From: Heterodontus francisci
Taxonomy: Eukaryota
Length of the DNA: 64,000 bases
Direction: 5' to 3'
Assembly: GCF_036365525.1 (NCBI RefSeq)
Contig: NC_090416.1
Span: 14,064,323-14,128,322 of the forward strand
In this document: positions 30,745 through 54,204 of the stretch, piece by piece
Layout of the letters: every line of letters begins with the position of its first letter
Position numbering within the stretch: the stretch's first letter is position 1
Translations under genes and position numbers: made by a program
The notes under the pieces: generated by a model
Databases searched by the model: none
Told to the model about the DNA's origin: nothing
The model's input: the letters and a program-made list of their open reading frames with translations, nothing else

Positions 30745-31191
30745 CTGAGAGAGGAAAGAAACAGAGGTACATCTTTATGACAATGGCGTCGGAGGTAACA
30801 GGAGTTTACACGGGTCACGCCACACTCCCTCAATTTGAGCTCATCCAAAACTCTGCTGCCCCGTATCCTAACTGGCACTGAGTCCTGGAGACCCATCCCC
30901 CCTGGTTTCTCGCTGACCTACATCGGCTCCCGGTCCCTCAACACATCCACCATAAAATTTCTCATCCTTGTGTTCAGATCCCTCCATGGCCCCCACCGCC
31001 CCACCCCATCGCTGTAACCTTCTCCAGACCCTACAACCCTCCGAGATCTCTGCGCTCCTCCAATTCCGGCCTCTTGCCCATCCTCCGATTCCCATCACTG
31101 CACCATTGGCGGCCGTTCCTTCAGAAGAAAGGAGAAAAAGGCACGCAAATTGATTTAGAAATATGACAGACTGGTGTTAATCTGTCCTTAC

Positions 31192-31371
31192 CTGTGTGGC
31201 CATTGTTGGAGAGCGTGAACGAGTTGCTGTCTGATTTAATGTATCCCTTCAATTGGACTGGTCTCAGGGAGGGATCATACCTGACATGCTCAGTCTCAAT
31301 ATTGATAGGGGACTGTGATCCTTTCCCACAGTGCAGATATTCCTCTTTCCAGTGTTTTGGACCTTGAGGGC
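31192..31371 (-). CDS. CA14: Carbonic anhydrase exon 3
   Basis: PQGPKHWKEEYLHCGKGSQSPINIE...SFTLSNNGHT|gtaagg; QSPINI and proton-shuttle His; 180 nt. Confidence 0.95.
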
Positions 31372-31697
31372 CTGGATTAAATGGGATAATTAGATTGGCA
31401 AGCTAATGGAAATTCATCGCGGGCTAATTTAAGCCCTAAGGCATCTTTCACCTATCAATGCAAGTTCTTCTTGTTGGTTGAAAGGTTTCTGGATTCCAGT
31501 CAGGGTTGCTATAGTTGGCCTGGGATGTGGAGGAGATAAACCCAGCCAAGATACTCTCTCCTCATTGCTGGCCAGTGACCGCACCCCCCCCCCTTGAATG
31601 TACGCTGAGGTGAGGACAGGATGGGGCTCGGCTGTGAGCAATGTAGAGATAGTTGTAAAGAAATCTGGTACCATCAATGTGAAAAAACTCAGTGTCA

Positions 31698-32359
31698 CAT
31701 CAAACACTCCCAGGACAGGTACAGCACGGGGGTTAGATACAGAGTAAAGCTCCCTCTATACTGTCCCCATCAAACACTCCCAGGACAGGGACAGCATGGG
31801 GGTTAGATACAGAGTAAAGCTCCCTCTATACTGTCCCCATCAAACACTCCCAGGACAGGGACAGCATGGGGGTTAGATACAGAGTAAAGCTCCCTCTACA
31901 CTGTCCCCATCAAACGCTCCCAGACAGGTACAGCACTGGGGTTAGATACAGAGTAAAGCTCCCTCTACACTGTCCGCATCAAACACTCCCAGAACAGGGA
32001 CAGCATGGGGGTTAGATACAGAGTAAAGCTCCCTCTATACTGTCCCCATCAAACACTCCCAGGACAGGGACAGCATGGGGGTTAGATACAGAGTAAAGCT
32101 CCCTCTACACTGTCCCCATCAAACGCTCCCAGACAGGTACAGCACTGGGGTTAGATACAGAGTAAAGCTCCCTCTACACTGTCCGCATCAAACACTCCCA
32201 GAACAGGGACAGCATGGGGGTTAGATACAGAGTAAAGCTCCCTCTATACTGTCCCCATCAAACACTCCCAGGACAGGGACAGCATGGGGGTTAGATACAG
32301 AGTAAAGCTCCCTCTACACTGTCCCCATCAAACACTCCCAGGACAGGTACAGCACGGGG
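31698..32359. repeat. 70-bp tandem repeat array, left part (9 units plus a partial unit)
   Basis: catcaaacactcccaggacaggtacagcacgggggttagatacagagtaaagctccctctatactgtccc; unit starts 31698, 31768, 31838, 31908, 31977, 32047, 32117, 32186, 32256, 32326. Confidence 0.95.
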
Positions 32360-33136
32360 ATTGGCTGGTCAATTTGGAGCACTTCCTGCCAGCAATCAGG
32401 GGGAGCAGCTGCACCTGTGTTGCAGCAATTGCAGAGTGGAGAGAGGATACTGGAGAGAGGTGAATACAGAGTGGAGACTGCAGCAACTGGAGAGAGAGAC
32501 TGGAGAAAGGTGAATACAGAGTGGAGACTGGAAACTGCAGCAACTGGAGAGAGAGACTGGAGAAAGGTGAATACAGAGTGGAGGGAAACCATCAAGGAAG
32601 GCTGCAATTTTTCTGGAGAGGTGGGTGTCAGGGCACCTGAAAGACTATTAAGTTTAAACTGTTTGGGGGAGGGAGAAGAGGCCTGAAGACTCAGGGGTGG
32701 GGCAGCCAAATCCAGTAAGGGCCCCTGTGTTTGTATTGGTGTTTGCACACAGGGAGCTCCCTCCCCACCCCAACTGCCTGCTCGGGACAGCTGGAGTTGC
32801 CCGGGTGAAGACTGTCTTGTTAAAATCAGAAGAGGAGAGTACCGGGCGGCTCCAGCTGTCCCGGGCGAAGAAGCCTCCCCCAACTGGAAGACAACAAACA
32901 AGTTTGGACTAATTGTGATAAAGGTGCTCCAACTGGCAGTTGAAACAAACATCCTTTTCAGCCTTTCTCTCCCTTCCTCCACTCAGTCGCCTCAATCACC
33001 TATCCTCCCCTTTTCCTTTACCATCCTACGCCATCCTCCTCTACTCCCACTCCACCTTGTTTAAAGTTTGCTTTTTTTAAAAAAAATTGTGTAAATTTGT
33101 TTTGTTTCTTGGGGGTGGACGTAGCTCTTAGACCCC

Positions 33137-35176
33137 ATGGCAAGCCCCTCTTCGCCGGTGGCGGGGCCTTCCCGTTCATATGCTGCTGCGGCTGCTGCAG
33201 CTGCACCTGTTGCCCCGTCACCGTTTGCTTTATTAACAACGAAGCATGGGGTCAAGAGCTACGTCCACCCGAACATGACTATAGAGGCATGTGTGAAAGC
33301 AATGGCCGAGGTTGTCGGCCCTTCGGCCATTGTTGCAGCCTCTAAAATGTACGGGAAGGCAGTGTTTTTCCTGAAGACCGAGCGGGCGGTGTCCCTGGCT
33401 CTGAGCAAGGGGCTCACCGTGGGCGGGACCTTTCTGCCAGTGGACCCCCTGGAGGCCACTGCGCAAAGGCTCATTTTATCCAATGTCCCACCCTTCATCC
33501 CTGGTGAGCTCCTCCTTCCCCACCTGCACCATCTGGGGGAGGTAAAGACGGGGCTCACCCCAGTCCCGCTCGGTCTTCGGGAGAACAGCCTCCGACACGT
33601 GTACTCCTTCCGCCGCCAGTTATTCATGCAGCTGGCGCGGGAGGAGGTGACAGAGAGCCACTTCAATGTAGAATTCCAGGGGACGGCCTACCGCGTCTTC
33701 TGGACCTTGGACGGGGTGCGGTGCCATGTCTGTAAGGGGGTGGGGCATGTTCGTAAGAACTGCCCCAACCTCCCGGCTGCCAACTCCAACTCAGCGGCCC
33801 AGGGTGGCGACGCTGCACCTCCTCCCACCCCCACTACACCACCACCAGATACCATTCAGTCGGTACCGGAGGCTGTGGTTTTCACGGCCTCCGGCAGGGA
33901 GGGGGGTGACCGTCCAAGTGGAAGGAAGGCGCGGAGGAGAAATAAACATCGAGAGGCACGTCCCCTGGATATCGTGACACTACCCGAGCCTGAGCTCAGC
34001 CCAAGGCCCGATCTCGGGAAGTCAACTTGCCCCAGGGCTGGGCTCAGGCCCAGGGTGAATAAAAAAAAGGAGAGTGTGGAGGTGGAGGCCTCTGATGATA
34101 TGGAGGTCTCTGAGCCTCCGCACACAACTGGGAAAAAGAGGAGAAGGCACCCCTCCACAGAAATAACACAGGGCCCTGAGGTGCAGGGCCCATCTGTTGG
34201 AGGGGAGCTGTCTCCTGTTTCGGGTCCCCAGGTTTCCCCTACCGCCACCACCAAGGCTGCAAAGTCCGGGCAGGTGCTCCCTATTCCTCAGGATGGAGGG
34301 GAGGGGATGGCCCCGGTACGTGAGGCCCCTCCTGAAGGAGTAAGTGGGGCCCTGCTTGTGGTGGGGGAGCCTGGGGAAACCGCCCATTCCGCCACTGCTA
34401 CTGGGTCGGGTGTCCTGAATGAAGGGGAGGGCGAGGCCCCAGAGGGTCGGGCCTCCCAGCCGGAGTCCACCACCAACCAGGAGACACCCGACCCAGTTAT
34501 AACTGAGAATGCTGCCCCATCTGCTGGGCCTGTGGGTGCTGGCGGAGCGGGAGATGGCCTCCTCTCGCCGCCTCCAGTCTCGGCTCCGGCTGGTTTCCCG
34601 GAGTCCGGAACTTCTGTCTCCCCTGGACCACTCATTGGCCTGGGGATGGAGGTGGAGGGGGGTCCTGAACCGCTGGTGCCTACAGGCTCCAGTTTCACAA
34701 TAGAACCCAGAGAGGACTCCTCCGCCATCGATCCTGGGGGTGGGATCGTGACGGAGGCGGGACCAGCTGGCGCGGCCGGGGCGTCCGCCCCACAGTGTGT
34801 GGTGGATGTGTCGGCCGCTGGCGGTGACGACCCGGAGGAGGATGGGGATTCGGTGCGGGGCACGGAGGATGATCTTGATTCCATCGCCAGTGAGGTGGTG
34901 GAGTCCCTCGTGCCTCCCACCGAATCTCCTCTCATCCCCACGGCGGAACTCCGGGATTTCCTCGCGGCTTGCAGAGGTTGCCGCAATAAAGTTCAGCTGG
35001 CCCTCGACCGTTGGTCGAATCTGGCGCTGATCATCCAGTCCGTCCGTGCCGCCCTTAAGATAGCGGGCAAGCGCGCGGACGTGAAACTGGTTGAGAGGCG
35101 CCGTTTTAATGTGTTCCTCAATGGGTTGCTGGGGGAGTGGAGGGCCAGGTGCACTTCCACTCCCTCCTCACAGTGA
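33137..35176 (+). CDS. Tx1-type ORF1 (gag-like nucleic-acid-binding protein, CCHC knuckle)
   Basis: 679 aa. N-terminal region with SKMYGKAVFFL and LILSNVPPFIP, knuckle CHVCKGVGHVRKNC, long low-complexity linker, helical C-terminus. Confidence 0.9.
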   Translation: MASPSSPVAGPSRSYAAAAAAAAPVAPSPFALLTTKHGVKSYVHPNMTIEACVKAMAEVVGPSAIVAASKMYGKAVFFLKTERAVSLALSKGLTVGGTFLPVDPLEATAQRLILSNVPPFIPGELLLPHLHHLGEVKTGLTPVPLGLRENSLRHVYSFRRQLFMQLAREEVTESHFNVEFQGTAYRVFWTLDGVRCHVCKGVGHVRKNCPNLPAANSNSAAQGGDAAPPPTPTTPPPDTIQSVPEAVVFTASGREGGDRPSGRKARRRNKHREARPLDIVTLPEPELSPRPDLGKSTCPRAGLRPRVNKKKESVEVEASDDMEVSEPPHTTGKKRRRHPSTEITQGPEVQGPSVGGELSPVSGPQVSPTATTKAAKSGQVLPIPQDGGEGMAPVREAPPEGVSGALLVVGEPGETAHSATATGSGVLNEGEGEAPEGRASQPESTTNQETPDPVITENAAPSAGPVGAGGAGDGLLSPPPVSAPAGFPESGTSVSPGPLIGLGMEVEGGPEPLVPTGSSFTIEPREDSSAIDPGGGIVTEAGPAGAAGASAPQCVVDVSAAGGDDPEEDGDSVRGTEDDLDSIASEVVESLVPPTESPLIPTAELRDFLAACRGCRNKVQLALDRWSNLALIIQSVRAALKIAGKRADVKLVERRRFNVFLNGLLGEWRARCTSTPSSQ

Positions 35177-35208
35177 GGTATTGGTGACGGGTTTTACGTA
35201 CCTTTGAC

Positions 35209-38200
35209 ATGAAGATAACCATAGCCAGCCTCAACATCAACGGCAGCAGAGGGGCTCACCGCAGATTTCACAATCTCTCAGTCCTTAGGGAAGGGAGATA
35301 CGCGGTGAGCTTTCTGCAGGAAACCCACACCGTTCCGGGAGACGAAGCCACCTGGCTCCTGGAGTGGCAGGGTGGGGTCTACATGAGTCACCTCACCCCT
35401 ATTTCTAGTGGGGTGGCTATCTTGTTGGCCCCGACTTTTCAGCCGGAGATCTTGGGGGTCAAGGAGCTAGTGCCGGGCCGCTTGCTCCACCTCGCCGTTC
35501 GCCTGGGTAGCGTGCCGCTCCACTTTGTGAACGTGTACGCGCCCAGGCCCGGCGCTTTGCAAGCGCGCTTCTTTGAAGAAGTGTCCGCTCTCTTGAGCTC
35601 CATCGATAGCGGCGAGTGCATCATCCTCGGGGGGGATTTTAACTGCACCCTCGAGGTGGGGGATCGCTCCGGTCCCCAGCGCGGCCAAGCGTCGGTGGAG
35701 AAGTTGAGGGGACTGATCAGCTCCCTTAACTTGGTGGACGTCTGGCGGAATCTCCATCCCGACTCCAGCGCCTTCACGTGGAGGTCTGGAGGAGGGGGGT
35801 CGCGAATCGACCGCCTCTACATTTCGCAGGCGTACGTCTCCCGTGTCTCGGCGGCCTCCATGCGGCTGGTGCCGTGCTCGGACCACCGCCTGGTGTGGGC
35901 GGAGTTCACTCCGCTCCGCACGCGGGCGGGGTCTGCGTACTGGCACTTTAACAACCGGCTGCTGGAGGACGTGCGATTTCGGGACTCGTTCTGTCGATTC
36001 TGGGCCGACTGGAGAAGGAAGCAGGGGGGCTTCCCCTCCTTGAGGCTATGGTGGGATGTGGGCAAGACTCACATCCGCGTCTTCTGTCAGGAGTACGCGA
36101 AGGGGTCGACCAAGAGGCGGGAAGCCGAGGTCGGGCGCCTTGAGAGGGAGGTGCTCGACTTGGAATCCCGCCTCGGTCATGCCGTCGCGGACCCGGCCCT
36201 GTGGCAGGCGTACAAAGAGAAGAAGGGCGCGCTGAGGAACCTGCAGCTCATAGGGTCCCGAGGCGCGTACGTGAGGTCGCGGATCCAGATCCTGGAAGAT
36301 TTGGACCGCGCCTCACCCTTCTTCTACTCGCTGGAAAAATGGCGGGGGGTCCGTAAGCAGCTCGTCGAGCTGCTGGCCGACGACGGATCCTCCATCACGG
36401 ATCCGGAGGGAATGGGCCTCCTGGTCCGGACGTATTACAGTGCGTTGTTCTCTCCGGATCCGTCCAGCGAGGATGCGCGCAGAGTTTTGTGGGAGGACCT
36501 GCCGCAGGTCAGCCCGGAGGGCGCCGAAGGATTGGAGGCTCCGCTCACGTTGGCGGAGCTGACTGGCGTCCTCCACCAGCTCTCGAGGGGCAAATCCCCA
36601 GGGCTGGATGGGTTGACCGTGGAGTTCCTCAGGGCGTTCTGGGACGTCCTGGGGGACGATTACGCGCGGGTCCTGGGGGAAAGCCTGGCGACCGGGGAGA
36701 TGCCCCTCTCGTGGCGCAGGGCGGTCATCGTCCTGCTGCCGAAGAGGGGCGATCTCCGCCTGCTTAAAAACTGGCGTCCGGTCTCCCTCCTCAGCACGGA
36801 TTATAAGATCTTTGCCCGGGCTATGTCTACCCGCCTGGGCTCCGTGCTGGCCCACATGATCCACCCCGACCAGTCCTACACGGTCCCGGGCCGGTCCATC
36901 CAGGACAACATCCACCTGGTCCGGGACCTGATCCATCTTTCCCAGAGGACTGGTCAGTCGGTCGCCTTTCTCTCCCTCGATCAGGAGAAGGCGTTCGACA
37001 GGGTGGATCACGATTACCTTTTCGGTACTCTGCGCGCTTTCGGACTCGGGCCGCATTTTGTGTCCCGGGTCCGACTTTTATACGCCGCCGCAGAGTGTCT
37101 AGTCAAAGTTAACGGGTCCTTGACGGCGCCCCTTCGATTTGGGAGAGGAGTGCGTCAGGGGTGCCCCATGTCCGGCCAATTGTATACCATCTGCGTGGAG
37201 CCCTTCCTGTGCCTGCTTCGCAGGAGGTTGACGGGATTGGCTCTGCGCGAGCCGGCCATGCGGGTCGTCCTCTCGGCTTACGCCGACGACGTGCTCCTCG
37301 CAATCACAGATCCCGTTGACTTGCGGAGGATGCGCGACTGCCAGCAGACCTTTTCTGCCGCGTCCTCCGCGAGGATCAATTGGGAGAAATGTTCCGGACT
37401 CCTGGTTGGTCAGTGGCGGGTGGACTCCCTGCCGGAGGAGATGACACCTTTTGCGTGGAGCACCACGCACCTCCTCTATCTGGGAGTCCACCTTAGCCCC
37501 GCTGAGGAAGCCTGGCCGGCAAACTGGCAGGAGTTGGAGGCGAAAGTCACCGCTCGGCTGGGGCGCTGGACAGGACTGCTCCGAGTGCTTTCCTACAGGG
37601 GCCGAGCGTTGGTCATAAACCAACTGGTGGCCTCCATGCTGTGGTACCGGTTGGTCACTTTGGCCCCGCCCCCTGTATTTGCCACCAAGATCCAGAAGAA
37701 ACTCGTCGATTTCTTCTGGGGCAAGAGGAAACACTGGGTCTCTGCCGCGGTCCTGAGTCTCCCGATCGAGGAGGGCGGTCAGTCGCTGGTGTGCGTCCGC
37801 ACCCAGGCTGCGACTCTCCGCCTTCGGACCCTGCAGAGATACCTGTACGTCGAGCGTCCTCCCAGATGGTGTGCGCTGGCGACGTATTTTTTCCGCCAGT
37901 GTCACTGCCTTCAAGACGACACGCAGCTCCCGGTGGAGTCCGTTAGCCGCGCCTCTCTGAGGGAGTTGCCTGTCTTTTACCGGGATCTTTTCCGAGTCTG
38001 GAACATGGTCGCCTCCAGTCAGGGCGCTCCCCCGCCGGCGGAGGAGAGCGCCTCGGCTGTCCGGGCGGCCGACTCCGGGGACGGTCCGGCGGGCGGAGGA
38101 GTAGCCGAAACCCCCGGGACGCCCCTCACTGTGGGTGGCGAGGGGGCTCGGGAGTGCGGAGCGATCCCGGCCGAGCTGACGCCCGCTCGGCCGGAACTGC

Positions 38201-38946
38201 TCATCGGACCCAGGCCCCGAAACCCTCCTCGGGAGCCGGTCCCGCACAATCCGAGCTGCCTCTCGGAAATGCCCTCCGTGCCATTCCAATCGGCGCGGAG
38301 GGGTTTCCTGTACGGGCTGCTCCTGCACACTCTCCACTTCCTCGCCCTCGTCAGCCGGCCGGACACGCCCTGGCGGTCCGCGTTGCCATCTGGCGGCGAG
38401 GGGAAACCCCGATGGAGGTCTCTCTACGCGGGAGTCTTCCCCCTTTACATCGGGGACCTGGGGTGGAGGGTGCTGCACAGAGCAGTCCCGTGCAATAGGC
38501 TTTTAAGTAGGTTCACGGACTCCCAGGCCACCTGTACTTTCTGCGGCCTGGACGAGTCCGTGTTCCACATTTATATGGAGTGTGCGAGGTTGCAGCCCCT
38601 ATTTGAGTATCTGAAGGGGCTGCTCCTCAAATTCTGGCTGCACTTCAGTCCCACACTCCTGATCTTTGGGCACCCGGTGCGGAGGGGCTTGGGCCGGGAG
38701 GAGGATCTCCTCGTCGGTCTGCTCCTGGGCCTGGCCAAGGTGGCAATTCACAGGTCCAGGTTGCGGGCCGTCGGGAGTTCCGTCCTCCCCGATTGCCTGC
38801 CCCTCTTCCGCGGTTACGTTCGCGCCCGGGTGTCCCTGGAAAAGGAGCATGCGGTGTCCGCCGGTACGCTTGAGGCCTTCCGCGACCGGTGGGCACCGCA
38901 GGGACTGGAGTGCATCGTCGACGCCAAGAATGGCATTTTAATTTGA
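35209..38946 (+). CDS. Tx1-type ORF2: APE endonuclease + reverse transcriptase + C-terminal Zn finger
   Basis: 1245 aa. SLNING, FLQETH, GGDFN, SDH (APE); LDQEKAFDRV, GVRQGCPMS, YADD (RT); CTFCGLDESVFHIYMEC. Confidence 0.95.
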   Translation: MKITIASLNINGSRGAHRRFHNLSVLREGRYAVSFLQETHTVPGDEATWLLEWQGGVYMSHLTPISSGVAILLAPTFQPEILGVKELVPGRLLHLAVRLGSVPLHFVNVYAPRPGALQARFFEEVSALLSSIDSGECIILGGDFNCTLEVGDRSGPQRGQASVEKLRGLISSLNLVDVWRNLHPDSSAFTWRSGGGGSRIDRLYISQAYVSRVSAASMRLVPCSDHRLVWAEFTPLRTRAGSAYWHFNNRLLEDVRFRDSFCRFWADWRRKQGGFPSLRLWWDVGKTHIRVFCQEYAKGSTKRREAEVGRLEREVLDLESRLGHAVADPALWQAYKEKKGALRNLQLIGSRGAYVRSRIQILEDLDRASPFFYSLEKWRGVRKQLVELLADDGSSITDPEGMGLLVRTYYSALFSPDPSSEDARRVLWEDLPQVSPEGAEGLEAPLTLAELTGVLHQLSRGKSPGLDGLTVEFLRAFWDVLGDDYARVLGESLATGEMPLSWRRAVIVLLPKRGDLRLLKNWRPVSLLSTDYKIFARAMSTRLGSVLAHMIHPDQSYTVPGRSIQDNIHLVRDLIHLSQRTGQSVAFLSLDQEKAFDRVDHDYLFGTLRAFGLGPHFVSRVRLLYAAAECLVKVNGSLTAPLRFGRGVRQGCPMSGQLYTICVEPFLCLLRRRLTGLALREPAMRVVLSAYADDVLLAITDPVDLRRMRDCQQTFSAASSARINWEKCSGLLVGQWRVDSLPEEMTPFAWSTTHLLYLGVHLSPAEEAWPANWQELEAKVTARLGRWTGLLRVLSYRGRALVINQLVASMLWYRLVTLAPPPVFATKIQKKLVDFFWGKRKHWVSAAVLSLPIEEGGQSLVCVRTQAATLRLRTLQRYLYVERPPRWCALATYFFRQCHCLQDDTQLPVESVSRASLRELPVFYRDLFRVWNMVASSQGAPPPAEESASAVRAADSGDGPAGGGVAETPGTPLTVGGEGARECGAIPAELTPARPELLIGPRPRNPPREPVPHNPSCLSEMPSVPFQSARRGFLYGLLLHTLHFLALVSRPDTPWRSALPSGGEGKPRWRSLYAGVFPLYIGDLGWRVLHRAVPCNRLLSRFTDSQATCTFCGLDESVFHIYMECARLQPLFEYLKGLLLKFWLHFSPTLLIFGHPVRRGLGREEDLLVGLLLGLAKVAIHRSRLRAVGSSVLPDCLPLFRGYVRARVSLEKEHAVSAGTLEAFRDRWAPQGLECIVDAKNGILI

Positions 38947-39133
38947 GTTTTTTGTTTATTTATCTGTTTTAATAAAGTTATTTTAAAACTGTAAATATGT
39001 ACATAAAGGGGGCCTGAGGGATAAAGGCCCCCTCGATGTGAAAAATATAAAAGGGGCCTGGGGTATAAAGGTCACCTTGTAAAAAGAAAAAAAAAAAAAC
39101 GGGTTTGATACAGAGAAAGAAAAAAAAAAAAAA

Positions 39134-39226
39134 ACGGGGTTAGATACAGAGTAAAGTTCCCTCTATACTGTCCCCATCAAACACTCCCAGGAAAGGTACA
39201 GCACTGGGGTTAGATACAGAGTAAAG
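39134..39226. repeat. 70-bp tandem repeat array, right part
   Basis: Resumes in register after the poly(A): acggggttagatacagagtaaag...catcaaacactcccagg...ttagatacagagtaaag. Confidence 0.9.
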
Positions 39227-39384
39227 ATTGGGTGAGAATGTGATCCAGAGAAAGGGATTGACTGTAAATGGACAGTGACAGAAGTGGAAGCCGATCGTTT
39301 AGATTCCCTCTCAGACATGGGGAACATTGCAGGAAGATCAAAGAAAGGGGATTGGGGTTAAAATACTGTTTGGAAAGGACTTAC

Positions 39385-39405
39385 CTTCATACGTCCAGCG
39401 GGAAC
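39385..39405 (-). CDS. CA14: Carbonic anhydrase exon 2 (21-nt micro-exon)
   Basis: ttttcctgtacag|GSRWTYE|gtaagt; the conserved W-x-Y; phase 1/1. A 21-nt second coding exon is also recalled for human CA14. Confidence 0.85.
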
Positions 39406-40659
39406 CTGTACAGGAAAAGAGAGCAGATTCGGTATCACAAACTACAGCACAGAAACGGTCTGTTCAATCCACCTGCTCCTTGCTGGTGTTCACATTGTAC
39501 ACGAGCCTCCTCCCACCCCTCCTTCTCTCACCCTCCAAAATATCTGAGAATGACTGGGGACACAGATTGAACCATTCATTACGTATGCCGCCCAAGGCTT
39601 CATAGCCTATGAAGGTAAAGCAGGGATACTCCTGATGCACAAGATTTGCATGGAGCTCAGTTGCTTTGGTGTGACTGAATTCCCAATTCCAATGTCTCAG
39701 TGGTAAATGCATGGCCCAATGTGGGACTGAACCATCCAGACCAGGAAGATCCCAAGTTTGACTCATGCTCCCCTGCGGGTTGGTGGGGGGGGGGGGGGGT
39801 AGGGGGGGCGGGGTGGTGCCACTGTTGGTTTTAGCGCCCTGCGTTTGTGAAGGGCGTCAAATAAATGCAAGTCTTTCTTCTCCACGTTGCGAGCACTGTA
39901 TTTGGAGAGTGCTCCGTTTGCTCTCTAAATGCTTCAGCAATCTGGGGACAGACAAGCACGTTAGTGTTTGGAGCTGGAAACTTTTGCTCAGCAACTGGCC
40001 GGGTTCTCTGAAGCATTGGGCAGGCTGCGAAACTAAAGACAGCTGGGTCTAACACCACCATCTCATTGCTTCTGCCTCCAAGGTGGGGCACAGATCCATT
40101 GTAGCCTTTCTTCGGAGAGTCAGAATGTGTTCAACTCCCTCCTGGCCCCACTCCCCCCCCCCCCCCCCCCCTTATCTCTGTAACCTCCTCCAGCCCCTAC
40201 AACCCTCCGAGATCTCTGCGCTCCTCCAATTCCGGCCTCTCGTGCATCCCACCCCCCCCTGCCCGATTCCATCGCTCCACCATTGGCGGCCGTGCCTTCA
40301 GCTGCCTGGGGGCCCTAAGCTCGGGAATTCCCTCCCTAAACCGCTTGCTCATCCTATAAAGATGCTCCTTAAAACCTACCTTGTTGCACTAGGTTTTGAT
40401 CACTATTCTAAGTGTCTCCTTATGTGGCTCAATGTCAAATTTAGTCTGATAACTCTCCCGTGAAGTGCCCTGGGATGGAATACTTTGCTAGGTTAAAGGC
40501 GCTATGCAAATGCCAGTGGTGGTGCTGTGTAATGTGATCTGCGTTGTCTATGCACTTCTCTCCTGAAGGCGTCGACTCTGGGATACGGGTTTCACGGGTG
40601 CACCAAACGGCCACAGCTGCCTCCGCTGGACCCTCTCTGACTGGGAACAGTGAGGGGCA

Positions 40660-41100
40660 AGACTTGCATTTCTATAGCGCCTTTCACAACCTCAGCACCT
40701 CCCGAAGCGCTTTTACAGCCAATGAAGTACTTTATTTGAAATGGAGTCGCTGTTGTAATGTAGGATGATGATAATGACCCAGATCATTTGTTTTTTTTAG
40801 TGATGTTGGTTGAGGGATAAATATTGTCCCCAGGACACCGGGGAGAACTCCCCTCCCCCCCCTACCCCCCTCCTCCCGCTCTTCTTCCAACAGCGGCCGT
40901 GGGATCTTTAACATCCGCCTGAGAGGGGTCTCGGTTTAAATGTCTCATCTGAAAGACGGCACCTGCGACAGTGCAGCACTCCCTCGGTACTGGCACCGGG
41001 AGTGTCGGACTGGGATTATGTACTGCAGTCTCTGGAGTGGGGTTGGTTGTGAAGCCACAGCTTGCTGACTCAGGTGAGAGTGCTACCCACTGAGCCACAA
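40660..41100 (-). mobile_element. Deu-domain SINE, near full length
   Basis: Tail-to-head match to the other copies. Confidence 0.65.
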
Positions 41101-42336: not shown

Positions 42337-43195
42337 GCCAGTACTGAGGGAGTGCTGCACTGTCGGAGGGTCAGTACTGAGGGAGTGCCGGACTGTCGGA
42401 GGGTCAGTACTGAGGGAGTGCCGCACTGTCGGAGGGTCAGTACTGAGGGAGTGCCGCACTGTCGGAGGGTCAGTACTGAGGGAGTGCCGCACTGTCGGAG
42501 GGTCAGTACTGAGGGAGTGCCGCACTGTCGGAGGGTCAGTACTGAGGGAGCGCCGCACTGTCGGAGGGTCAGTACTGAGGGAGTACCGCACTATCGGAGG
42601 GTCAGTACTGAGGGAGTGCCGCACTGTCAGAGGGTCAGCACTGAGGGAGTGCCGCACTGTCGGAGGGTCAGTACAGAGGGAGTACCGCACTATCGGAGGG
42701 TCAGTACTGAGGGAGTGCCGCACTGTCGGAGGGTCAGCACTGAGGGAGTGCTGCACTGTCAGAGGGTCAGTACTGAGGGAGTGCTGCACTATCGGAGGGT
42801 CAGTACTGAGGGAGTGCCGCACTGTCGGAGGGTCAGCACTGAGGGAGTGCTGCACTGTCGGAGGGTCAGTAATGAGGGAGTGCTGCACTGTTGGAGGGTC
42901 AGTACAGAGGGAGTACCGCACTATCGGAGGGTCAGTACTGAGGGAGTGCCGCACTGTCGGAGGGTCAGCACTGAGGGAGTGTTGCACTGTCGGAGGGTTA
43001 GTTCTGAGGGAGTGTTGCACTGTCGGAGGGTCAGTACCGAGGGAGTGTTGCACTGTCGGAGGGTCAGTACTGAGGGAGCACCGCACTATCGGAGGGTCAG
43101 TACTGAGGGAGTGCCGCACTGTCGGAGGGTCAGCACTGAGGGAGTGCCGCACTGTCGGAGGGTCAGTACTGAGGGAGTGCCGCACTGTCGGAGGT
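42337..43195 (+). repeat. 33-bp minisatellite (about 26 units) inside a SINE
   Basis: gtcagtactgagggagtgccgcactgtcggagg; flanked by SINE head (about 42252) and tail (about 43415). Confidence 0.95.
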
Positions 43196-44976
43196 GCCGT
43201 CGTTAGTGGTCAATATTCATCACTGAATTCATCACATCATTAAAAGCGGATGATCTGGGCCAGTATCACATTGCTGTTTGTGGGATCTTGCTGTGCGTAG
43301 ATGGCCACGTTTCATGCATTACGACGGTGACTGCACTTCAAAATAGGACTTTATTGGCTGTAAAATGCTTTGTGGAGTCCTGGGGTCGTAAAAAAGGTGC
43401 TATAGGAATGCAGGATTCTGCTTTACCTTTGCAAGCTGCTCAGTCAGGAACTGGTCAAGGTTCGTGGTGCACTGGTGATTAAAATACTTCAGAGTTTTAA
43501 ACATTTTTATATAAGAGGTTTTGCACTAATGCTCTTAGCATTCCGAATGGGTGACTCACATTCGCATGGTGCCATTTCATTTCTCTCGGCTACGTCTCAA
43601 AGTGCTACGCATTTCAGGAATTACTTGGGAAGCGAATGTTCTACAGGCAGACGTGGCAGCCATTTTTGCACCCAACAAGTAGCAATGATTCTGTTTTTGG
43701 TTGAGGGAGGAATGTTGGCCTGGACACAGGGAGAGCAGGACCCCGCTGTTCTTCGAATTGCTAACCCACAGGAGCGGACAAGACCTACTCTAAAGGGGTA
43801 GAGTTAATCTTCCTGTGCCTGGGCTGCTTGTGGGGGTCGGGGGGGGGGGCAGCGACCACAGGAGATTCAGGCAGGCTCCATCATCCGTGGCTTCGAAACC
43901 CCCCAGACTTGACTATTCCAATGCTCTCCAGCCTCCCACCCTCCGTAAACGTCAGCTGCCCTGTCTGCTAACTCGTGCCAATTCCTGTTCACACATCACC
44001 CCCTGTGCTCGCTGACCTACATCGGCTCCCGGGCCGGCAACACCTCGGTTTTTAAATCCTTGTCCTCCAGTGCAAATCTCCTCTGTGGCCCTCGCCCCCT
44101 CCCTATCTCTGTAAGCTCCACCAGTCCTACAACCCTCTGCGTTCCTCCAATTCCGGCCTCTTGCATATCCCCCGATTCCCATCGCTCCACCATTGGCGGC
44201 CGTGCCTTCAGCTGCCTGGGGGGCCCTAAGCTCTGGAATTCCCTCCCTAAACCTCTGCCTCTCTCTCTCTCTCTCTCTCCTTCTTTAAGACATTCCTTAA
44301 AACCAACCTCTTTGACCGAGCTTTTGGTCAGCTGTCTTCTTGTGTGGCTCAGTGTCAAATCTTGCCGGATAGCATCGCTATGAAGTGCCTTTGGACGTTT
44401 TATTGCATTAAAGGCACTGCAGTTGTATTACACCTCATCTGATTTCCCTTGGGATCCACTAGCCACAGACCCAGAAAGGGGAAGACCTGCCCCAAAGTCT
44501 CCTATAAGAGACAAACCCTTCCGAACATACAGTATTGAAGTGTCAGCCTAGCTAGGCTATGTGCCTAAGCCCTTTGCCTCATGAAATTCTAGTTCACTGG
44601 TGCTAGCTACCCAGCCCGAGCGCTGATCAATTCTGTTTAACTGTCCTAATTCGGTTTGTTAGTCACCACTCTCCCAGGCTCAAGACAACAGCCATTGCCT
44701 CTGTCACAGCCTCAAACATAAACAATAGAAAAGATGAACAAACTTAATGAAAGGAAGATTTGCATTTCTATAGCACCGTTCACAACCTCAGGGCATCCCA
44801 AAGTCCTTTACAGCCACAGAAGTGGTTTTTCGAAGTGTAGTCACCGTTTGATTGAGGGAGGAGTATTGGCCAAGACACAGGGGGGAGAGCTCCCCCCCTG
44901 CTCTTCTTTGAATGGAGGCCAGGGGATCTTCTGCACGCTCCTGAGAGTTTGATGTCTCATCTGAAGAATGGCACGG

Positions 44977-45355
44977 CAGCACTCCCTCAATACTGCCTCT
45001 CCGACAGTGCAGCACTCCCTCAATACTGCCTCACCGACAGTGCAGCACTCCCTCAATACTGCCTCTCCGACAGTGCAGCACCCCCTCAATACTGCCTCTC
45101 CGACAGTGCAGCACTCCCTCAATACTGCCTCTCCGACAGTGCAGTACTCCCTCAATACTGCCTCTCCGACAGTGCAACACTCCCTCAATACTGCCTCTCC
45201 GACAGTGCAGCACTCCCTCAATACTGCCTCTCCGACAGTGCAGTACTCCCTCAATACTGCCTCTCCAACAGTGCAACACTCCCTCAATACTGCCTCTCCG
45301 ACAGTGCAACACTCCCTCAATACTGCCTCTCCGACAGTGCAACACTCCCTCAGTA
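44977..45355 (-). repeat. 33-bp minisatellite (about 11-12 units) inside a minus-strand SINE
   Basis: cagtgcagcactccctcaatactgcctctccga; SINE spans about 44757-45440. Confidence 0.95.
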
Positions 45356-46168
45356 CTGGCAGTGGGGGCGTCAGCCTCGATTTTGTGCTCAACTCTTTGG
45401 AGGGGGACACAAACCCACAACGTTCTGACTCCGAGGCGAGAATACTCTCACCCTATAATATTTGGGAAGATGTTTCTCATTCGGAATCATTCATTTGAGG
45501 CTCCAAACTATAACTAATGAAACGCATTGCCTGTTTTGATATGGACCCTAACAAGGGGCCCCCAGGATTTAGGCCCCAAACATCCACTGACTAGTGGTTC
45601 CTGCCCAAGGGAGGGGAGTGCAGTAGCCAGCAGTACCCTCTCCTGATCACGATGCTGACAAGTACAAACCTGCGTAGGTTGGACAGGAAAGGGCCCAGTC
45701 ATGATGCCCCCCAAGACTGAATAGCCTGCTGATATTCATCACCAAAGCATCAGCACTTGGCCTTCAGGCAGAAGTGTTGGAAATTGTGGAGGTGGGAGGG
45801 GGAGGAAAGAACTGGGCGACATGTACTGCTGTTTAAATAAAAAAGATTTTGATCGAGTCTAGTCTGACTGGCTACTCAGCTGTGGGTGGCAGCGATGTCT
45901 GGCCATGAATTTACTGGCTATGAGTCACACACTGTCAGCAGTGACTGTATGAGTGTGGTTGGTGAATGAATGGGAACGATTGACAGGCTGTGGGTGAGGA
46001 TTAGTGCCAGTATAAACTTTGCATATAAACGTTAAACACGGAACAAGACATTGGATTAACCTGTTCATCCAGCTGGCTGCGCTGAGTTGGAGTGAGGGAT
46101 GCGGTTTGGGAGCACCAGATTTAAACACAGTGACATATCAACTTCATGACATTTCTTTGGGAAAAAGG

Positions 46169-51699: not shown

Positions 51700-53910
51700 C
51701 AGCCCCTCTCCCAAGCACCCACCCATTGCGACCCCACCCATCCTTCATATTTCTTCCATCCCCTTCTCCTCTCCATCTCTCCCCTCCCACTCACCTCCTC
51801 TACTCTATATCTCCTGCCCCTCCTCCCTGCAACACCTACCTCCTTCCTTCTCCCCCCTCCCCCCACATCTCCTGCTCCCTCCTTCCCTCATCTCCCGCTA
51901 CCCCTCCTCCTCCCCTCCACATCCTCTGTCCTTTCTTTCCCTCCACATCTCCCACCATCCTCACCGCTGTGTCCTCCTCCCCATATACCCTTCACCGCAT
52001 CCCCGATCCCATTCCCCTATATCCCCCCTCCCATAAAGCCTCTATTCCCCCCATGTTCCTCTCCCCTCCCATATCCCCCACCCTTCCCCATATACCCATT
52101 CCCATATCCATATCCCCCCTCCTCCATATCCCCTTCTCCCAACCCTTTTTCTCATAACCTCCTTCCCCGTATTCCCTTCGCCTGTATCCCCCTTGGCCTG
52201 TATCCCCCTTCCCCCATATCCCTCCATATCCTCCCTCCCTGTATTACCCCAGAGCCCTGTAACCCCCTTCCCCAGTTTCACCCTTCCCGTATTCTCCTGT
52301 ATCTCCCCTGCCCATATTCTCCTGTATTCTCCCATAACCACTTTCCCCTGTATACGCCTCCCCATATTCCTCCATATACCTCTTCCCCATATCCCCTCCC
52401 CCTGTATTCAACCATATCCCCCTCCCCCTGTATTCCCCGCACCCCCATATTCCCCTCTACTTATTCTCCCATATCCCATCCTCCCGTATTCCCCCATATC
52501 CATCTCCCCCCATATTCCCCCATATCCATCTCCCCCCATATCCATCTCCGCCCATATTCCCCCATATCCATCTCCCCGTAACCCCTCCCCCCATATCCAT
52601 CTCCCCGTAGCCCCTCCCCCCATATCCATCTCCTCCGTAACCCCTCCCCCCATATCACCTCCCCCGTAACCCCCCCTCCTATTCCCCCATATCCATCTCC
52701 CCTTAACCCCTCCCTCCTATTCCCCCATATCCATCTCCCCGTAACTCCTCCCCCATATTCCCCCCATATCCATCTCCCCGTAACTCCTCCCCCATATTCC
52801 CCCATATCCATCTCCCCGTAACTCCTCCCTCCATATCCATCTCCCCGTAACCCTTCCCTCATTTTCCCCCATATCCATCTCCCCATAGCCCCTCCCCCAT
52901 ATCCATCTCCCCGTAACCCCTCCCTCCTATTCCCCCGTAACCCCTCCCTCCTATTCCCCCATATCAATCTCCCCGTAACTCCTCCCTATTCCCCCATATC
53001 TCCTCCCTATTCCCCCATATCCATCTCCCCGTAACCTGACCCCCAAATTACCCCATATCAATCTCCCCGTATCTCCTCCCCCATATTCCCCCATATCCAT
53101 CTCCCCGTAACTCCTCCCCATATCCCCCCATAGCCATCTCCCCGTAACTCCTCCCCCATGTTCCCCCATATCCATCTCCCCGTAACTCCTCCCCCATATT
53201 CCCCCATATCCATCTCCCCGTAACTCCTCCCCCATATTCCCCCATATCCATCTCCCCGTAACTCCTCCCCATATCCCCCCATAGCCATCTCCCTGTAACT
53301 CCTCCCCCATGTTCCCCATATCCATCTCCCCGTAACTCCTCCCCCATATCCATCTCCCTGTAACTCCTCCCCAATATTACCCCATATCCATCTTCCCGTA
53401 ACCCATCCCCCATATCCATCTCCCCGTAACGTGACCCCCAAATTACCCCATATCCATCTCCCCGTAACCGTCCCCCATATTCCCCTATATCCATGTAACT
53501 TGTCCCCCATATTCCCCCATATCCATCTCCCCCGTAACCTTTCCCCCATATCCATCTGCCCCATAACCTGTCCCCCATATCCATCTCCCCGTAACTTGTC
53601 CCCCATATCCATCACCCCATAACCAGTCCCCCATATTCCCCCATATACATCTCCCCCATAACCCCTCCTGGAACCCCCATACCCCTTTCCCGTAACCCAC
53701 CCGTACTCCCTTCCCCATAATCCCTCCCCTGTAACCTCACGTAACCTCTCCCCCGTCATCCCCTCCCGTATTCCCCTCCCCGTATTCCCCATCACCCCCT
53801 CCTCCATAACCCCCTCCCCATTACATCCTTCCCCATAAGTCCCATCCCAGATCCCATATGCCCCCTCCTAATAACCTCCTCCCCCTTATCCCCTCCCTAT
53901 ATTGACCTCC
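51700..53910. repeat. C-rich low-complexity region / variable-unit minisatellite
   Basis: Core ccccatatccatctccccgtaac(tcct) interleaved with ccccatatt; most regular at about 52480-53660; almost no G on the + strand. Confidence 0.9.
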
Positions 53911-54204
53911 ACATTCCTCATTCACCTCAAATCCACCTCTATATTCCCCCAAAACGCTGTCCACATTCCTTCCATATTCCTCTCCATATTCTCCCTGCTT
54001 TGTTGCTTTCGGAATACTGCTCAATTTGTGACATTTCCCTGTGCTGAACGAGAGTCCACGCCCCTCGGTATGTTTCCTCTCTCGATCTGTCCCAAGACAT
54101 ACACTGTCCACCTCCACCTCCAGCCCTGTGCAAATGGTGCCTCCTTTTCTGAATCACATCCCTCCCTCCTTGTCAGCCACCATGAAAGGAGGGAGGAGGG
54201 GATA

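Follow-up and report, generated by a model that had tools for sequence, protein, structure and literature searches.

A diverged target copy between two poly(A) tracts at the 3' end of a putative Tx1-clade retrotransposon in a shark minisatellite

How did a piece of target DNA come to lie between two poly(A) tracts at the 3' end of a retrotransposon? The window, i.e., the whole stretch of 64,000 nucleotides of Heterodontus francisci DNA analyzed here, holds an insertion in a minisatellite that ends in an A-rich tail, a 20-mer resembling the target and a second A tract, after which the target resumes. The original prediction gave the sequence and coordinates of tail, 20-mer and tail, and these were found exactly as written when re-read from the window. 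The start and layout of its span were also right, but its end at 39145 cuts through the outer target copy, which comprises 22 bases (39135-39156). The 20-mer had been described as a slightly diverged copy of the downstream target, and the likeness indeed lies above chance. Specifically, it is separated from the outer 22-mer by three edits (a G run shorter by one, the substitution A>T at 39106, and a missing T). None of 21,049 other 20-mers in the window, taken at every third position with two repeat regions excluded, came within three edits of the target copy (best six), nor did any of 20,000 shuffled inner 20-mers (best four). Within the window the inner 20-mer has no second exact occurrence, the canonical form is found in all 11 other target cores, and TRF called a 36-bp tandem of 2.2 copies at 83% across the double tail. 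The double tail is confirmed as an observation in the window sequence.

The element and its target

Judged by its sequence, the segment from 32360 to 39080 plus tail is a putative full-length, intact non-LTR retrotransposon of 6.7 kb that we assign to the Tx1 clade. Both ORFs are uninterrupted over 5.8 kb, and the window contains no N. ORF1, which had no match in Pfam, carries a CX2CX4HX4C zinc knuckle spotted by eye, and is followed by ORF2 with an N-terminal APE endonuclease and RT (PF03372, residues 13-233; PF00078, residues 518-769). The best of 52 matches to ORF2 was Xenopus Tx1 ORF2 (YTX2_XENLA), with 521 of 948 residues identical (55%) and a further 49% over 244 aa, and a Heterodontus protein covering 28% of ORF2 was 93% identical, a sign of a shark host. 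The features considered, namely ORF layout, nearest named relatives, poly(A) tail and TSD, all point to the Tx1 clade. No further copies or fragments of the element were found within the window by blastn or tblastn. The divergence since insertion would be 0.4-1%, a rough figure derived from the open ORFs and a single near-private base in about 260 bp (38926, where 649 of 684 reads of sample X22 have G).

In the 3' UTR, TATAAA lies 11 bases ahead of the first tail. The two hairpins stand in tandem, with arms identical in 23 of 33 alignment columns and a GATAAA/TATAAA hexamer at each loop. The predicted folding energy of the region is -35.4 kcal/mol, with a z of -5.0 that is inflated by the A runs. 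The tandem hairpins (39000-39078) are a candidate 3' recognition signal for ORF2. At the other end of the element, the tandem repeat of the 5' UTR (32437-32583) is purine-rich.

Table 1. Positions in the window of the element, its tails and the interrupted target
Feature	Positions	Strand	Remarks
Upstream part of target minisatellite, 9.5 units of 69/70 bp	31698..32359	+	TRF
Upstream TSD copy, acgggg	32354..32359	+	5 bp if A not counted
5' UTR with 57-bp internal repeat	32360..33136	+	Start fits 413-read loose-end consensus in 28 of 30 letters
ORF1, open, 679 aa from first Met	33137..35176	+	
ORF2, open, 1245 aa from first Met	35209..38946	+	APE, RT, C-terminal Cys/His motif
3' UTR	38947..39080	+	Two related hairpins (39000-39040, 39051-39078); TATAAA at 39064
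First tail, AAAAAG + A13	39081..39099	+	AAAAAG 39081-39086, A13 39087-39099
Inner diverged copy of target +1 to +22, a 20-mer	39100..39119	+	
Second tail, A15	39120..39134	+	
Downstream part of target minisatellite, 1.3 units	39135..39226	+	Begins with downstream TSD copy

Upstream of the element the minisatellite unit breaks off at ...cacgggg, and the unit downstream picks up at (a)cgggg, so that element, inner copy and the two tails lie together within a TSD of 5-6 bp (downstream copy 39134/39135-39139). With its four Gs, the upstream TSD copy matches the outer copy and not the inner one, which has three. The four-G, 69-bp unit that yields this TSD is common, with the joint 39202>39134 present in 520 X22 reads. 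Rfam gave no match at gathering thresholds in 31000-41000, so the target does not belong to the RNA genes listed there. TRF matched the upstream array at 93% with a period of 70 and at 98% with a period of 209, and this 209-bp, three-unit higher-order period is a sign of recent amplification. The minisatellite ends at 39226/39227, which is position +22, the same as the end of the inner copy. The unique flank that starts at 39227 shares its first five letters with the 5' end of the element; the idea that it is the 5' end of a decayed relative was rejected, as blastn found no match.

One insertion site across the family

Reads and contigs from four samples out of 24 runs were compared with 38820-39419 at 90% likeness, the other 20 runs (including X10-X12, a small share) providing no evidence. 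X1 consists of contigs from organism A and may be the source sample of the window, X22 consists of raw capture reads from a different sample of the same organism, and X5 and X6 are contigs from two other organisms. The read counts given here come from the best 15 of 182 joints, 12 of 306 between-letter records, 17 of 467 loose ends and 19 of 8,226 pieces. Depth in X22 was about 943 at the ORF2 end versus a mean of 0.35 over nine unique-flank bins, which points to a family on the order of thousands of copies, a rough estimate because X22 is a capture library. Over 96 bases of the end of ORF2, X5 and X6 were each identical to the element, and the 3' UTR was absent from both.

The element family inserts at one fixed base of the 69/70-bp repeat, at many loci. 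On the 5' side, 413 X22 reads break away from the repeat behind 39208, a base that corresponds to the 5' junction in the window. Their consensus agrees with the first 30 bases of the element as given in Table 1, at an agreement of 0.51, and therefore only part of the 413 reads are element junctions. On the 3' side, 82 of 114 X22 reads at 39119 have a longer run of As before the target. A share of more than 20% of flanks is the criterion for a target-specific family according to PMC4494074, in the part of it drawn on here; ours is a judgement from reads. Target specificity, for which the 20-mer had been offered as single-locus evidence, therefore holds on other grounds: it rests on many loci, because up to 413 reads exit at a single base, and not on the 20-mer.

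The 5'-junction reads (up to 413) are also numerous relative to the depth at the ORF2 end, which suggests full length for many family copies, something uncommon in L1-like elements. Position 39014 is the starting base of 35 of about 169 X22 molecules, which may be a library effect or a duplicate. Within the first tail, the G at 39086 is the rarer state: 36 of 51 X22 reads have A there, and the other 15 may represent a subfamily whose end grew into an old tail.

The arrangement of target, A run and the start of the target again recurs at other loci, in nine of the best ten X1 records listed. Five of these form a class ending at +23 (depths 460, 210, 208, 154 and 75; total 1,106), with one C after +22 and runs of A8, A9, A9, A11 and A15. 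The other four end near +32 (depths 104, 64, 143 and 71; total 382). The single-copy flank contig has a depth of 4.63, and the inner stretches of three of the four +32 records depart from the target consensus at depths above it, although sandwich depth above single copy may reflect array amplification without retrotransposition. In X22, a target-to-A-run joint (39162>39120) was supported by 46 reads with 30 starts. The +32 end lies 11 bases past the AGTAAA of the target (39150-39155), within the 10-30 bases past the signal given as the polyadenylation window in the part of PMC13009371 used here, and the +23 end falls outside that range. The second repeat unit received most of the +23 depth (878 of 1,106), a hint that the sequence upstream is plain minisatellite and no element, although the placement of a joint on unit 1 or unit 2 is the tool's choice.

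Origin of the inner copy

We tentatively read the inner copy as a short 3' transduction, direct or inherited, and give this explanation slightly less than an even chance. The likelihoods attached to this and the other explanations are judgements and were not computed. The original prediction of a 3' transduction from a parent at the same position of another repeat unit fits the anatomy, with its two tails and enclosing TSD. The 20-mer by itself is no proof of such a parent, because poly(A)-only insertions with a long TSD would explain the +23 sandwiches equally well.

Starting from the observed anatomy, TSD, fixed family-wide site and recurring sandwiches, the read-through, the source locus and the order of events may be reconstructed as follows. 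The family endonuclease would nick a fixed base of the 69/70-bp minisatellite, as the biology of Tx1 leads one to expect. A source copy at the same base of another unit would have been transcribed through its own tail, AAAAAG-A13, and the read-through RNA would take in 20-22 bases of the downstream target and then a second A tract, either by polyadenylation at the source or because that tract was already in the source DNA and was inherited through a sub-lineage. TPRT would then copy the whole RNA into the present site and create the 5-6 bp TSD around the entire unit. Either way, the inner copy would be older than the present insertion, and for this reason three changes could stand beside a young, intact element. 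All three edits are on the inner copy, and at 0.4-1% divergence at least three changes in 22 sites have a probability of 1e-4 to 1e-3. An older, RNA-borne inner copy is favored because three one-sided edits are hard to gain after insertion. The pairing of the four-G TSD with the outer copy and the existence of the +32 class also agree with a transduction.

On the other hand, the missing source, the poor signal for an end at +22 and the dominance of the +23 class count against a transduction. The cut at +22 falls one base past AGTAAA, and the inner copy does not preserve this hexamer intact. Among the signal hexamers considered, the sole one in range is a weak AAGAAA at 39084, 30 bases upstream, and TATAAA lies 50 bases before the second tail. 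In the part of PMC13009371 covered here, 274 of 349 L1 endpoints have a polyadenylation signal and about a fifth do not. The inner changes are also not common variants of the target among those listed, which counts against a transduction as well: no deletion at 39136-39139 or 39152 reached at least 3% among the target variants listed, and no record for 39142 appears among those listed, beyond which there are 53 more.

As for the source, none among the records listed clearly carries the inner variant, either as parent or as sibling. X22 depth, 120 at 39060-39079, is down to 12 reads by 39106, and 10 of these 12 have A. In X1 the same base is A at 422.7 of a depth of 484.6 and T at 62 of 485; in X5 it is T throughout (84 of 84). 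The residual T (2 of 12 in X22, and in X1 and X5) was rejected as evidence of siblings on grounds of ambiguity, since a canonical junction aligned without a gap also puts T at 39106. We also rejected the inner 20-mer as the usual 3' end of the family, given A in 10 of 12 reads at 39106 and the existence of single-tail joints (39079>39126 and 39089>39207 among the X1 joints listed, which may be other copies). There may be a sub-lineage of a few tens of copies with the inner variant. Pattern scans found no match in metagenome contigs or in viral contigs, and the one match in a genome contig (L001, 3001-3020) was discarded as a chance exact target-core 20-mer in bacterial DNA that lacks the surrounding repeat.

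The strength of the +23 class, which is the largest among the best ten X1 records listed and is mostly placed with minisatellite upstream, raises the possibility that the inner copy was made at this site, in the form of a long TSD produced by the TPRT of the family. We regard this as a real, though rather doubtful, option. It could have happened in two events, with a poly(A)-only insertion bearing a 22-23 bp TSD and a full element using the same nick successively. In a single event, the RT would copy A15, jump to the overhang of the cut top strand and copy 22 bases back, which would restore the priming end at the nick, and then re-prime on the RNA tail and copy the element; RT errors would in that case be fixed on both strands. 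The inner copy begins exactly at the nick, in keeping with such a duplication, and precedents are described in the parts of the literature consulted: R1 copies separated by their 14-bp TSD, different junction classes in full-length and truncated R1 (both PMC2718515), and tandem SINEU-3 that sandwich a TSD and were mobilized by Tx1-Mar (PMC4494074). However, the full-length copy at this locus and the 413-read junction imply a TSD of 5-6 bp, and the two copies of a TSD are identical at birth, yet three edits are found here, all on one side. The fragment at this locus also stops at +22 and lacks the T that stands locally at +23. Moreover, had an A-only insertion come first, the upstream TSD should have three Gs, whereas it has four (unless the element starts with G).

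The endpoint at exactly +22, which is hard to place under the preferred transduction, would be predicted by a later 35-bp tandem duplication, through slippage or end-joining, at a microhomology of AAAG. These four letters end both the head of the first tail (39083-39086) and the target 22-mer (39153-39156), and the duplicated unit would be A13 plus target +1 to +22. Such an event would account for AAAG before both tails and for the tandem seen by TRF, and it gives a role to the tail G at 39086, which, being a minority state, is a coincidence under the other models. We nevertheless consider it unlikely. It would postdate a young insertion, so that the three one-sided edits would be as improbable as calculated above, and sandwiches elsewhere end at +23 and +32, where the AAAG microhomology does not apply. 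Slippage was also rejected as a cause of the missing T, since both directions of slippage keep the T.

Lastly, the inner copy could stem from an error in the assembly or consensus that duplicated the junction noisily beside homopolymers. All three edits are of a kind seen next to runs, none among the best 19 of 8,226 pieces listed spans the double tail, and single-tail junctions occur in X1, though possibly in other copies. Against an error stand the open ORFs, the lack of N in the window, and the unique flank (39197-39419, 223 bases), which one X1 contig matches with 0 differences, a match that is not independent if X1 is the source of the window. The same architecture was also seen at other loci in independent raw reads and contigs. 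We judge an error to be quite improbable.

Known relatives and wider meaning

Like the shark element, Xenopus laevis Tx1L has two ORFs with APE and RT and is target-specific for a repeated host element. They differ in that the shark target is a 69/70-bp tandem repeat and that the TSD of the full-length shark copy is 5-6 bp, as against 23 bp in Tx1L. The target of Tx1L is Tx1D (PMC4494074, PMC1919474, both used in part), and recognition of the top strand had not been identified as of PMC1919474, in the part of it covered here. Sequence-specific insertion into multicopy targets is also shared with Keno, Kibi, Koshi, Tx1-Mar and satellite-targeting Tx1 families, satellites being a class of Tx1 targets according to the legend of Fig. 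3 in PMC4494074.

The order of element, tail, short flank and second tail within one TSD is that of human L1 partnered 3' transductions, most of which are shorter than 100 bp in the portion of PMC13009371 consulted. Unlike those, the flank carried by the shark element is the target itself and is therefore no unique tag of a source, so that it resembles a local duplication. The shark case also differs in having no good signal in the 10-30 bases before the second tail. Drosophila tandem R1 and crocodilian SINEU-3 likewise hold a target fragment from the nick site between two element-made sequences (PMC2718515, PMC4494074, in part). In the shark, by contrast, the second insert would be poly(A) only, and the fragment is diverged and longer than the copy's own TSD. 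As for the relation of intervening sequence to TSD length in such tandems, the TSD here is 5-6 bp and a +23 sandwich class is also present; the copies are not identical, with three edits in 22 bases, all in the inner one, next to an intact element. Read-through and target annealing have been discussed for SART1Bm and R1Bm in the part of PMC7265360 seen here.

Double tails are already known from L1, and sandwiched TSDs from R1 and SINEU-3; such structures are a by-product of retrotransposition. What appears to be new is a high-copy Tx1 family aimed at a shark repeat, seemingly undescribed: our literature search, which covered few subscription journals, found nothing on a cartilaginous-fish Tx1 family or this repeat, and Repbase or Dfam may have it. 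Its value would lie in an intact, very abundant vertebrate Tx1 family with single-base target specificity and two preferred junction endpoints. The junction classes bear either on the second-strand cut of APE elements or on the insertion of target-carrying RNAs, and the latter would bear on the upkeep of dispersed shark minisatellites. Being intact and site-specific, a vertebrate LINE of this kind could also be tried in assays of RNA-templated insertion. It seems unlikely, though worth stating, that the family routinely makes RNAs whose ends lie within the target (near +23, or at +32 through AGTAAA) and reinserts them. If true, the LINE would lengthen and reshape the minisatellite on which it depends, replenishing its own target, and sub-lineages would be tagged by decayed target copies in their tails.

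Elsewhere in the window, a second minisatellite, with a 33-bp unit, forms two arrays (42339-43194 and 44976-45358) in opposite orientation, about 1.8 kb apart. From 51845 to 53991 runs a long low-complexity array, C-rich and with a strong skew, in which periods of 14-15, 28-29, 38 and 75 bp are nested. An isolated A17 run (1156-1172) is possibly the tail of another retroposed insert.
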